Of a stretch of 64,000 nucleotides of DNA, positions 14,504-42,124 are shown piece by piece. Each line of letters begins with the position of its first letter. Positions within the stretch are counted from its first letter, which is position 1. The stretch lies in the NCBI GenBank assembly GCA_963666425.2, contig OY762825.2:2112001-2176000 (forward strand). Reading direction: 5' to 3'. The notes beneath the pieces were generated by a model, which was given only the letters and a program-made list of their open reading frames with translations, did not search any database and was not told the DNA's origin. The translations under genes were made by a program, and so were the position numbers. This DNA is from Bacillota bacterium (GTDB lineage: Bacteria > Bacillota > JAAYKD01).

Positions 14504-14579
14504 GGCACGGTAGCTCAGTTGGTAGAGCAGCGGACTGAAAATCCGCGTGTCGCCAGTCCGATTCTGGCCTGTGCCACCA
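14504..14579 (+). tRNA. tRNA-Phe(GAA), T-loop TCCGATT (C55)
   Basis: 76-nt cloverleaf; anticodon loop CT-GAA-AA; encoded CCA. Confidence 0.95.
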
Positions 14580-14585
14580 GTTTAT

Positions 14586-14661
14586 GGCGGAGTAGCTCAG
14601 CTGGCAGAGCAAGCGGTTCATACCCGCTGTGTCGTTGGTTCGATTCCGACTTCCGCCACCA
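14586..14661 (+). tRNA. tRNA-Met(CAT), elongator type
   Basis: G1-C72 paired; loop TT-CAT-AC typical of Firmicute elongator Met; CCA. Confidence 0.92.
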
Positions 14662-14707
14662 AAACAAGGTCCCGATTTTGATTGATTCAAAATCGGGACC
14701 TTGTTTT
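14661..14707. terminator. Bidirectional terminator
   Basis: 21-bp inverted repeat AAAACAAGGTCCCGATTTTGA / TCAAAATCGGGACCTTGTTTT. Confidence 0.85.
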
Positions 14708-15462
14708 TATGCAAAAATCCGCACATTGACCCGCAGCCGGCCTTTCCGGGTTTCCTTCTCGATGCCTTCATAAAGAAAGCGGCCAAAGCCCTGCACAGAA
14801 ACGATACTGCCTGCTGTCAGAGCTGCACTGGTGTTTTCGGTAACCCGACTGTTGACAGAGACAATCCCTTTGGCAAAAAGCTGTTGGCTCTCGCTGCGGG
14901 AGAGCCGATAGACCGCAGCAACGATAGCATCCAGACGCTCGGAGGCGATGACGATTTGGCTGGGATCGGGGATTTGATTGACGAAATCAGGTGCGTCCGC
15001 CATCGTGCAGCGAACCGTAGTGTGCTTTACCTGTTTCAATTCTGCGATGATGTAATCAGCGACCGAAACGAGGCAAAAGAGAGAACCGCAGTTATCATGC
15101 AGGATGATATCCCCGATAACTTCCCGTTTTAAACCCAAAGCTAAAACAGAGCCGAGGAAGTCCCGGTGACTGAGCTGATCCGCAAATTTCTGTGAAACAG
15201 GAGCAATGCAGATGCAGGAAATCGGTGAGCCGGCAGGCGGGTATTCCGGTGCAGGCACGCCAAAACAAGCAACTTTGCGTTCGGCGGCATCATAGCCACC
15301 CATTAAGGTAAAGGCAGCCGAATTGCGGTCAAAGGCTGTCTGCTGCAGCACTTCTTGTTCGGCGCGGTTTAAAAAATCGGAATAGAGCTCGGTATCACGT
15401 GAAAAGGCACGGTGAGCCAGCTCTGTGAATCTTTTCATCAGCAGTGTATCGTCTTCCGTCAT
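14707..15462 (-). CDS. ylmH: YlmH/Sll1252-family S4 RNA-binding protein
   Basis: SDFL..EQ, GGYDAAERK, LSHRDFLGSVLALGLKREVIGDI, S4 motif ASERLDAIVA, GFGRF. Confidence 0.88.
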   Translation of the reverse strand: MTEDDTLLMKRFTELAHRAFSRDTELYSDFLNRAEQEVLQQTAFDRNSAAFTLMGGYDAAERKVACFGVPAPEYPPAGSPISCICIAPVSQKFADQLSHRDFLGSVLALGLKREVIGDIILHDNCGSLFCLVSVADYIIAELKQVKHTTVRCTMADAPDFVNQIPDPSQIVIASERLDAIVAAVYRLSRSESQQLFAKGIVSVNSRVTENTSAALTAGSIVSVQGFGRFLYEGIEKETRKGRLRVNVRIFA

Positions 15463-15744
15463 ATCTGCCGCCTCCTTTCAGGATCAATTTGATGCTTTAT
15501 CATTTTGATGCTTTATCATTAACTAGACTATTCTCTTTGGGCTGGATTATTCCTTTGCTGACGAACAAGCTGTTCGGTTATTTGAAAATCGGTTTGCCGC
15601 CAAGTCTAATCGAGCCTACCAGGCAAGTGCAAACAAGAGGACCGATCGGCTGCGAAAAAGGTTTTGCTCCACAGCGAGCCGAATTAAGTAAAAGCGGAAT
15701 CCTCTGAGAATCAATAAGCTAATTTTGGACGGTGAATTGAAAAA

Positions 15745-16257
15745 ATGAAAAATCTCATTCTGATCAATGGTACGATGGGAGTCGGCAAGACGACGACCGG
15801 CAGAGCGCTGCAGCAATTGCTGCCGGATTGTGTTTTTCTGGATGGCGATTGGTGTTGGGATATGCGGCCTTTTGTGGTCAATGCGGAAACAAAAAAGATG
15901 GTTGAGCAGAATATTTATTATCTGCTGAATAATTTCCTGCACTGCTCAGTCTATCAAAATATAATTTTTTGTTGGGTCATGCACGAACAGGTGATTTTGG
16001 ATCATCTGCTGGCAGCTTTGGACCTTAGCGATTGCTGTGTTTATCAATTCTCTCTGGTTTGCTCCGAACAAGCCTTGATCAAGCGGCTGGAATTGGATGT
16101 GGCAGCCGGCCTGAGAGTCCCGGAAGGGACAGCCAGAAGTCTTCCCCGGCTGCAGAATTATCAGAGTATGGCAACGCTGAAAATCGATACAAGTGAGATC
16201 TCTGCTGCTCAGGCAGCAGAAAAGATCCTTTCTTACATCCATGCCGCTGCGATTTGA
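15745..16257 (+). CDS. P-loop nucleotide kinase-like protein
   Basis: LILINGTMGVGKTT; FLDGDWCW. Confidence 0.82.
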   Translation: MKNLILINGTMGVGKTTTGRALQQLLPDCVFLDGDWCWDMRPFVVNAETKKMVEQNIYYLLNNFLHCSVYQNIIFCWVMHEQVILDHLLAALDLSDCCVYQFSLVCSEQALIKRLELDVAAGLRVPEGTARSLPRLQNYQSMATLKIDTSEISAAQAAEKILSYIHAAAI

Positions 16258-16314
16258 AAGGGCTGGAGCAAGCAAATCCTCCGTGATGATTTCTTTTTAA
16301 AAGGAGTGTTGCAA

Positions 16315-16806
16315 TTGGCCGGTGAACTGAGTCTTTTTAATTCTGTCATGTTACAGAAACAAGCAGTCAATGAAATTCTGGGATTGAACCAAATCACCCG
16401 CCAATATGGCTTGACTTTAAGCCCAAAACAGGTGGTTGACCTGGTGGAAACCCGTGCCTTGGCATTGCAGCAGACCGGACGGATTGAAATCGGCGGTGGT
16501 GTCATTGACAAAATGATCACCGTCTTTGCCGATTCTCCCTTCCTGACCAGCTATAATTATGCGGAAACACTCAATGACTTAATTGAATTATTTTACTATT
16601 TTAAAAACGAAACACTGGAACAGGTCAGTGACGATGATTTAATCGGTTACATGGGCAAAGCCTTTAATGGTGTCTGCCAAGGCTCACTCGAATTATTAGC
16701 CGGACGGGAATTGGTCCGAATGGCACATAATATCCGATTTGGTTTGGCCGTGGATTACGAGGAAAAAGAGCAGGGGGAAGAGGAGGAACAGGATGGAGTA
16801 CGCTGA
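16315..16806 (+). CDS. Conserved clostridial hypothetical protein (DUF6323-like)
   Basis: AAGGAG RBS, start approximate; motifs TGRIEIGGG, ELFYYFKNE, SDDDLI, CQGSLELL recalled from this family. Confidence 0.65.
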   Translation: MAGELSLFNSVMLQKQAVNEILGLNQITRQYGLTLSPKQVVDLVETRALALQQTGRIEIGGGVIDKMITVFADSPFLTSYNYAETLNDLIELFYYFKNETLEQVSDDDLIGYMGKAFNGVCQGSLELLAGRELVRMAHNIRFGLAVDYEEKEQGEEEEQDGVR

Positions 16807-41698: not shown

Positions 41699-41772
41699 GC
41701 GGGAGTAGCTCAACGGTAGAGTCCCGGCCCTCCAAGCCGGTCGTGCGGGTTCGATCCCCGTCTCCCGCTCCA
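41699..41772 (+). tRNA. tRNA-Gly(TCC) with C33
   Basis: GCGGGAG/CTCCCGC acceptor stem, U73, anticodon stem CCGGC/GCCGG, loop CC-TCC-AA. Confidence 0.92.
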
Positions 41773-41801
41773 AATCATTCAGAACGCAGTCCGGTAGTTT
41801 T

Positions 41802-41877
41802 GCTGATGTAGCTCAGTTGGTAGAGCGTATCCTTGGTAAGGATAAGGTCAACGGTTCGAATCCGTTCATCAGCTCCA
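41802..41877 (+). tRNA. tRNA-Thr(GGT), copy 1
   Basis: Cloverleaf, loop TT-GGT-AA, CCA. Confidence 0.96.
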
Positions 41878-41882
41878 TTTTC

Positions 41883-41959
41883 CGCGGGGTAGAGCAGTCT
41901 GGTAGCTCGTCGGGCTCATAACCCGGAGGTCGTAGGTCCAAATCCTACCCCCGCAACCA
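41883..41959 (+). tRNA. Initiator tRNA-fMet(CAT), copy 1, T-loop TCCAAAT (C55)
   Basis: C1:A72 mismatch, three G-C pairs closing the anticodon stem, CT-CAT-AA. Confidence 0.95.
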
Positions 41960-41962
41960 CAT

Positions 41963-42038
41963 GCTGATGTAGCTCAGTTGGTAGAGCGTATCCTTGGTAA
42001 GGATAAGGTCAACGGTTCGAATCCGTTCATCAGCTCCA
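41963..42038 (+). tRNA. tRNA-Thr(GGT), copy 2
   Basis: Identical to copy 1. Confidence 0.96.
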
Positions 42039-42047
42039 TTTCTTTTT

Positions 42048-42124
42048 CGCGGGGTAGAGCAGTCTGGTAGCTCGTCGGGCTCATAACCCGGAGGTCGTAG
42101 GTCCAAATCCTACCCCCGCAACCA
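42048..42124 (+). tRNA. Initiator tRNA-fMet(CAT), copy 2, T-loop TCCAAAT (C55)
   Basis: Identical to copy 1. Confidence 0.95.

Follow-up and report, generated by a model that had tools for sequence, protein, structure and literature searches.

Results

C55 in the tRNA genes of the window and of the genome

A stretch of 64,000 nucleotides from a Bacillota bacterium (contig OY762825.2; hereafter the window, G000:C1:2112001-2176000) carried three tRNA genes, one for tRNA-Phe and two for initiator tRNA-fMet, that encode C instead of U at position 55 of the T loop. The same base was found in 11 of the 62 tRNA genes of the whole genome and in six tRNA families. Comparison with relatives showed a real, inherited change from U55 to C55 that had become fixed in six families in the ancestor shared by the species of the genus, with the initiator affected in two of its three genes. 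U55/pseudouridine 55 is among the most conserved nucleotides in biology, U being near universal at this position. U55 is the substrate of TruB and the partner of G18.

The genomes compared were the window genome G000 (assembly of 3.2 Mb, 98.49% complete), a second species of the same genus (G001), a member of the sister genus (G002), a control genome (G016), two Bacillota metagenome-assembled genomes (MAGs; G041 and G059), and Coprothermobacter platensis DSM 11748 (G042). The tRNA genes of G000 were called with ARAGORN, and the T arm was parsed genome-wide at a fixed offset from the 3′ end; the SeC tRNA gene fell outside this parse, leaving 61 scorable genes. C55 was presented by Arg-ACG (two genes), Gly-GCC (three), Phe-GAA (two), the initiator (two), Cys-GCA (one), and Thr-CGT (one), and TTC (U55) was read in 50 genes. 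All 11 C55 genes were located on the 2.9-Mb contig C1 and had a T stem with 5/5 pairs, canonical G53 and C61, and a loop of the form TCC[G/A]A..; the other invariant T-loop bases were unaltered in all 61 scorable genes. The T loop of transfer-messenger RNA (tmRNA) read TTC in G000, G001, G002, G041, and G042.

Within the window, tRNA-Phe(GAA) (positions 14504–14579, plus strand; ARAGORN and direct reading) had C55 at 14558 in the T arm GCCAG-TCCGATT-CTGGC and scored 67.3 bits against Rfam RF00005, for which the gathering score is 29. The two initiator tRNA-fMet genes (41883–41959 and 42048–42124, plus strand) scored 61.2 bits each and shared, by direct reading, the T arm GTAGG-TCCAAAT-CCTAC with C55 at 41938 and 42103, respectively; both Met(CAT) genes were recognized as initiators by the C1/A72 mismatch and the GGG/CCC anticodon stem, and the gene at 41883–41959 was identical in G001. 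All three C55 genes displayed a five-pair T stem, canonical T54, C56, A58, G53, and C61, and G18-G19 in the D loop. The tRNA-Phe gene was present as two identical copies in G000, both with C55; the G001 copy was identical, and the G002 copy differed by one base, which was position 55.

Confirmation of the genomic C

The Logan contigs of four runs, all of DNA type, were compared with a 7.4-kb stretch holding five C55 genes. Two sets of contigs read C55, with no other letters, at the same four genes (Gly-GCC, Cys, the second Gly-GCC, and Thr-CGT): (i) those of run X1, possibly the source sample and (ii) those of run X3, which came from another study and represented a strain with 22 and 12 differences in the flanks. 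Position 55 of tRNA-Phe lay outside the listed contig pieces, and the support for its C was the second species. In the second Gly-GCC gene (L128, position 3779), a C>T row was rejected as a sign of editing: it was the summed depth of tRNA-Gly contigs of other organisms in metagenome-type runs.

A sequencing or assembly artefact would draw on the rarity of C55 and on nothing else; against it stood the same base in eleven genes on one 2.9-Mb contig, in a second species, and in contigs of two studies, and its probability is taken to be negligible. Because 11 genes, a second species, and the contigs of two studies all read C, C55 in these genes was confirmed as real, neither chance nor base-call error.

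C55 families without a U55 gene

Among the 62 tRNA genes of G000, none with U55 was found for Phe, Cys, Gly-GCC, Arg-ACG, or Thr-CGT. At least for Phe, Cys, and Arg-ACG, the genome thus had C55 genes and no others, and as the sole genes for their codons they must serve translation. A third initiator gene of G000 (G000:C1:2335961-2336037) had U55 and a different T stem, and a U55 initiator was also found in G001.

That the C55 genes might be silent or decaying copies, with other genes doing the work, could appeal to this U55 initiator in both species and to Thr(TGT), which could cover the ACG codon of Thr(CGT). Against it, neither G000, at 98.49% completeness, nor G001 had a U55 copy for Phe, Cys, Gly-GCC, or Arg-ACG. 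The genes themselves also contradict it: they showed no other defect, did not differ between the two species, and were placed in tRNA operons beside U55 genes, following a promoter with a 12/12 consensus match (see below). Silent copies are therefore a very improbable explanation overall, and for Phe, Cys, and Arg-ACG this explanation is close to refuted.

An earlier note, made from the letters of the window, had called C55 in tRNA-Phe (14558) and in both tRNA-fMet genes (41938 and 42103), and direct reading agreed; direct reading and the T-arm parse likewise agreed with its call of TTC in Met, Tyr, Gly, and both Thr genes. Its three C55 genes were right, but the genome held 11 in total, and its view that a base-call error was unlikely is upheld by the 11 of 62 genes, the second species, and the two-study contigs. 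It had also allowed that U55 paralogues elsewhere in the genome might do the work, which holds for the initiator only and fails for Phe, Cys, Gly-GCC, Arg-ACG, and Thr-CGT.

Comparison of position 55 with close relatives

The comparison was applied to G001 and G002 by taking all Rfam tRNA matches of each genome, and to about 38 relatives outside the genus by hand counts in the loci around tRNA-Phe and the initiator. The second species had C55 in 10 of 50 tRNA genes, in the same six families as G000, and the sister genus had it in none of 49. The loci of the outside relatives showed C55 in 0 of 148 genes in one set and in 1 of 116 in the other (Gly-TCC of G013); flagged Leu-CAA rows and one genome without encoded CCA in these loci were parse register errors and not real C55. 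The control genome G016 had C55 in none of 35 distinct tRNA sequences.

Position 55 was the sole difference between G000 and G002 in both tRNA-Phe and tRNA-Thr(CGT). Across 36 comparable G000–G002 tRNA pairs, it differed in five; the corresponding counts were three, three, and two for positions 57, 59, and 60, and six for position 64, the only position that differed more often than 55. No difference at position 55 was found in the 40 G000–G001 pairs. The most conserved base of the molecule thus varied no less than the least constrained positions; every change ran from T to C and fell on one branch, and the base has been stable since.

truB and the search for an enzyme or a compensator

A single truB gene was found in G000 (L001 1411-2406), with a PF01509 match of 173.8 bits, the GHTGTLDP catalytic motif, no added domain, and the usual rbfA–nrnA–truB–ribF arrangement. 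TruB identity was 89–90% between G000 and G001 and 46% to the sister genus. Faster TruB evolution in the genus was rejected, the 46% being comparable with the 42% and 48% of the neighbors nrnA and ribF. In a TruB alignment of 19 genomes, the motifs were conserved, and only one well-conserved column separated the genus.

The earlier note had offered two options: an undescribed enzyme editing C55 to U or pseudouridine, or tolerance of C55 in this lineage, for which loss of truB was a possible cause. The lineage framing stands, since C55 occurred in six families of both species and was absent from sister genera; the loss of truB does not, given an intact gene with GHTGTLDP in its usual operon and no more diverged than its neighbors.

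Among 48 genomes, the residue lying two places ahead of the second Asp in the TruB [ST]-D-T-x-D motif (T88 in E. coli numbering) was Ser in five, namely G000, G001, G041, G042, and G016, and was Thr in 25 of 25 other genomes with a C55 initiator and in 16 of 17 relatives. Both predictions of this Thr-to-Ser change as a factor in C55 failed: G016, with Ser, had C55 in 0 of 35 tRNAs, and G059, with Thr, had four elongator C55 tRNAs.

Enzymes with the cytidine deaminase (CDA) fold were sought with PF00383. Three such genes were found in G000 (tadA, dCMP deaminase, and cdd), a count equal to that of U55 relatives, and two in C. platensis (tadA and cdd). No extra CDA-fold deaminase was found in G000 by a motif scan of 19,382 frames of at least 60 amino acids, which gave nine matches, the clear CDA-fold genes among them being the three already named; THUMP proteins were not searched. 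All RluA/RsuA-type (PF00849) synthase frames had at most 347 amino acids, and there was therefore no fusion resembling TrcP (see below).

TadA as a moonlighting C55 deaminase found no support. The UCCGA loop and the UACGA target of TadA are alike, but the register differs. No TadA column separated C55 lineages from their sisters, and an L-to-V change beside a zinc-binding Cys was found in G000 only. Four further candidates were tried and rejected: (i) loss of TrmFO, which was found in all five genomes tested; (ii) compensation through an acquired TrmI (m1A58), with no match in G000, G001, or G059 and weak matches elsewhere that were uncorrelated with C55; (iii) replacement of tRNA 3′ halves by an integrating element, an idea prompted by tRNA fragments in other records (see below), because the C55 genes lie 5–15 bases from their neighbors within tRNA clusters; and (iv) avoidance of TTCGAA restriction sites, because many G000 tRNAs retain TTCGAA.

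Recurrence of C55 in other bacteria and loop context

A scan of 185,579 species genomes for the 3′ part of the initiator, allowing any T stem and requiring C55, matched 66 stretches, of which 45 had a full-length tRNA-Met call and 21 had no tRNA call at that place. Almost all full-length C55 initiators belonged to Bacillota MAGs, and C. platensis DSM 11748 also had one. One C55 initiator sequence was shared without any difference by 13 loci, each from another species record; a second type was found in seven rabbit-gut ("Lapin") Clostridia records and was identical in five of the seven.

Three of the 21 stretches without a tRNA call were read and were 3′ fragments starting near the anticodon loop, and some others lay at contig ends. 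The three fragments (L058 4308-4336, L064 2256-2284, and L077 1829-1857) ran from the anticodon-loop region to the CCA end without a 5′ half and were hosted by a Cupriavidus record, a G041 contig that also held a full C55 initiator, and a Rhodomicrobium MAG. From their extent, such fragments look like attachment-site remnants of elements integrating into tRNA-fMet.

G041, G042, and G059, three genomes from two lineages, were picked solely for their C55 initiator, and each had C55 in several further families: (i) 4 of 29 distinct tRNAs in G041, the initiator included (Gly-GCC, Gly-TCC, Tyr, and fMet); (ii) 5 of 37 in C. platensis (Asp, Glu-CTC, Gly-TCC, Val-CAC, and Val-GAC), plus the initiator; and (iii) 4 of 29 in G059 (Arg-TCT, Cys, Gly-GCC, and Gly-TCC), plus the initiator. 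truB and trmFO were present in these genomes where tested. Four genomes closely related to C. platensis read TTC in the orthologous tRNA-Val(CAC). The families hit differed by lineage, with Gly, Cys, and the initiator recurring. Multi-family C55 thus recurs in unrelated lineages, each time young relative to the sisters, and this recurrence points to a factor acting at the lineage level.

Every non-U55 observed in the genomes and loci surveyed was C, never A or G. By hand count, all of the approximately 17 elongator C55 cases (their independence being approximate) had the loop TCCGANT, with G57 and T60, a context found in 23 of the 39 U55 elongator families of G000; most C55 initiators had the loop TCCAAAT, with A57.

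Other features of the window

Eight tRNA genes were called by ARAGORN in the window, all on the plus strand and all passing RF00005, and the printed tails of G000 tRNAs carried encoded CCA ends. The five U55 genes were as follows: elongator tRNA-Met(CAT) (14586–14661; loop TTCGATT), an internal control in the tRNA-Phe operon; tRNA-Tyr(GTA) (41608–41693; TTCGAAT); tRNA-Gly(TCC) (41699–41772; TTCGATC); and two copies of tRNA-Thr(GGT) (41802–41877, with TTCGAAT, and 41963–42038). All five were also read directly, and the last four made up with the two initiators a Tyr–Gly–Thr–fMet–Thr–fMet cluster, upstream of which a promoter-like TTGACA-17-TATAAT (41539–41567, plus strand) was recognized by its 12/12 consensus match only.

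At the slot of the first tRNA-Thr(GGT) (41802–41877; L099 1420-1495), G001 had a gene differing by two bases and with the anticodon GTT (Asn) (L098 1420-1495). This may be either an anticodon shift in a Thr-type tRNA or a MAG error, and the next tRNA of G001 was interrupted by the contig end.

The genes near the two tRNA clusters were named from their translations only. The Phe–Met pair was flanked on the minus strand (13167–14222 and 14707–15462) by two small acetyltransferase-like open reading frames (ORFs) and one S4-type RNA-binding-like ORF. Upstream of the second cluster (38336–40170, plus strand) were three genes, one like that of RNase Mini-III, one like thyX, and one for an rlmB-like RNA 2′-O-methyltransferase of the SpoU/TrmH family. 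A T-box leader (32833–33076, plus strand; 122.8 bits) preceded a tyrosyl-tRNA synthetase-like ORF (33137–34372); tRNA-Tyr keeps U55.

Discussion

Proposed retention of C55

The reading that we favor, at about an even chance of being correct, is that C55 is retained unedited and is tolerated, or is useful in the TCCGANT context. The C55 tRNAs would then take part in translation as encoded, and because TruB isomerizes uridine only and cannot act on C, they would lack pseudouridine 55. A pyrimidine at position 55 would still form the T-loop turn and would make an altered contact with G18, and the C-only pattern at this position fits such a need for a pyrimidine. Some lineage-level condition would make C55 acceptable or useful, and this condition would account for both the clustering of C55 in certain lineages and the restriction of elongator cases to TCCGANT loops. 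Retention is favored because C55 is stable, recurs without a common candidate enzyme, and has a precedent in a cultured species (see below).

Several points weigh against retention. In a study of yeast SUP4oc, no single change of the G18–U55 pair was tolerated in vivo (PMC4117946), so unedited C55 in sole-copy essential tRNAs would be unexpected. No compensating change was found within tRNA-Phe or tRNA-Thr(CGT) between G000 and G002. The clustering of C55 needs a lineage-level factor, none was found among the enzymes searched, and a hidden editing enzyme would qualify as one. C-to-U editing would account for the C-only pattern just as well, and, TruB being intact, an edited U55 could be turned into pseudouridine.

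Possible editing of C55

The same observations bear on a second explanation, which is possible but doubtful: C55 would be deaminated to U after transcription by a deaminase unrecognizable by sequence and then isomerized by TruB, so that U55-to-C55 mutations would be near neutral and would accumulate. The genomic C stands where U is near universal and in sole-copy essential tRNAs, truB is kept with all its motifs, and position 55 shows C only. The hitting of many families together in a few unrelated lineages, and of none in their sisters, is what a gained enzyme predicts, and TCCGANT, constant in the elongator C55 cases and present in 23 of 39 U55 families, could be a recognition motif. TrcP provides a precedent for a bacterial tRNA cytidine deaminase domain able to evade sequence searches (PMC9553926).

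However, no candidate enzyme emerged: G000 had three CDA-fold genes as in U55 relatives, C. platensis had two, no TrcP-like fusion occurred among synthase frames of up to 347 amino acids, and TadA had no substitution common to C55 lineages against their sisters. The C55 set was identical in both species, a drift under an editor being expected to give some turnover, and most C55 initiators, with TCCAAAT, lie outside the elongator context. In its fuller form, to which we assign a slightly lower and likewise modest likelihood, this explanation would posit an undescribed editing activity in this genus, the Bacillota MAG clade, C. platensis, and perhaps Lactobacillus plantarum, in which C55 would be deaminated in UCCGANU loops by a deaminase of no recognized family and then acted on by TruB, with C55 spreading through the gene set.

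Possible selection for C55

C55 could also be retained and adaptive, protecting tRNAs from a reader of the T-pseudouridine-C loop (a T-loop-cutting toxin or a phage nuclease) or exempting them from TruB; this we regard as improbable. Its appeal is the directional look of the changes: position 55 matched the most variable positions in its number of changes, all of which ran from T to C on one branch, and was the sole change in two tRNAs, while different families were affected in different lineages. A review describes CdiA-CT E479, a toxin whose cut in the T loop falls between T and pseudouridine (PMC9086364). Yet the analysis identified no toxin or nuclease of this kind and tied none to C55 lineages, most tRNAs and tmRNA keep U55, altering the most conserved base seems costly while positions 57, 59, and 60 are free to vary, and the counts are small.

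Relation to known systems

Full-text literature searches returned no report of multi-family bacterial C55, and their sole relevant match was PMC10464925. According to that paper, genomic C55 is found in every L. plantarum tRNA-Gly species except GCC and is called unique since U55 pairs with G18; C55 and C55U transcripts were glycylated equally (J Biochem 2023, PMC10464925). The present case resembles it in belonging to Bacillota and in affecting tRNA-Gly, with C55 in Gly-GCC (this genus, G041, and G059) and in Gly-TCC (G041, G059, G042, and G013). Unlike L. plantarum, G000 had C55 in Gly-GCC and U55 in Gly-TCC and Gly-CCC, and had C55 additionally in Phe, Cys, Arg-ACG, Thr-CGT, and the initiator. 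The L. plantarum study used transcripts, and whether the C is edited was outside its question.

Staphylococcal cell-wall tRNA-Gly species lack the T-pseudouridine-C sequence and are extra, non-proteinogenic isoacceptors. Position 55 is non-canonical in both cases, whereas the C55 genes of G000 are the sole genes for their codons.

Two editing systems offer comparisons. In Methanopyrus kandleri, CDAT8, a CDA-fold deaminase with a THUMP domain, reportedly edits C8 to U8. It is the closest system in logic, since editing there is said to restore a universally conserved structural U across many tRNAs of one lineage; unlike it, only tadA, cdd, and dCMP deaminase were found in G000, in a search that did not cover THUMP proteins. 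In Vibrio cholerae, TrcP, which combines a deaminase domain and an RluA-type synthase in one protein, converts C32 of tRNA-Tyr to pseudouridine (PMC9553926). TrcP likewise starts from a genomic C, and deamination to U followed by isomerization is the two-step route that C55 and TruB would need. The present case differs in concerning position 55 and not 32, in the absence of such a long synthase gene from G000, and in being seen here at the gene level.

Significance

Programs that find tRNA genes, or that call variants from tRNA-seq or modifications, presume U55, which gives C55 a practical side. A direct test is feasible, since the cultured C. platensis DSM 11748 and L. plantarum share the feature. 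In the lineages concerned, tRNAs encoded with C55 read codons for Phe, Cys, Gly, and Arg and initiate proteins, while TruB is kept. If the C is edited, this would be a new bacterial tRNA editing pathway; if it is kept, these would be natural tRNAs that function although they lack pseudouridine 55, in cells where other tRNAs carry it, and would provide a system for probing pseudouridine 55 and the contact between G18 and position 55.

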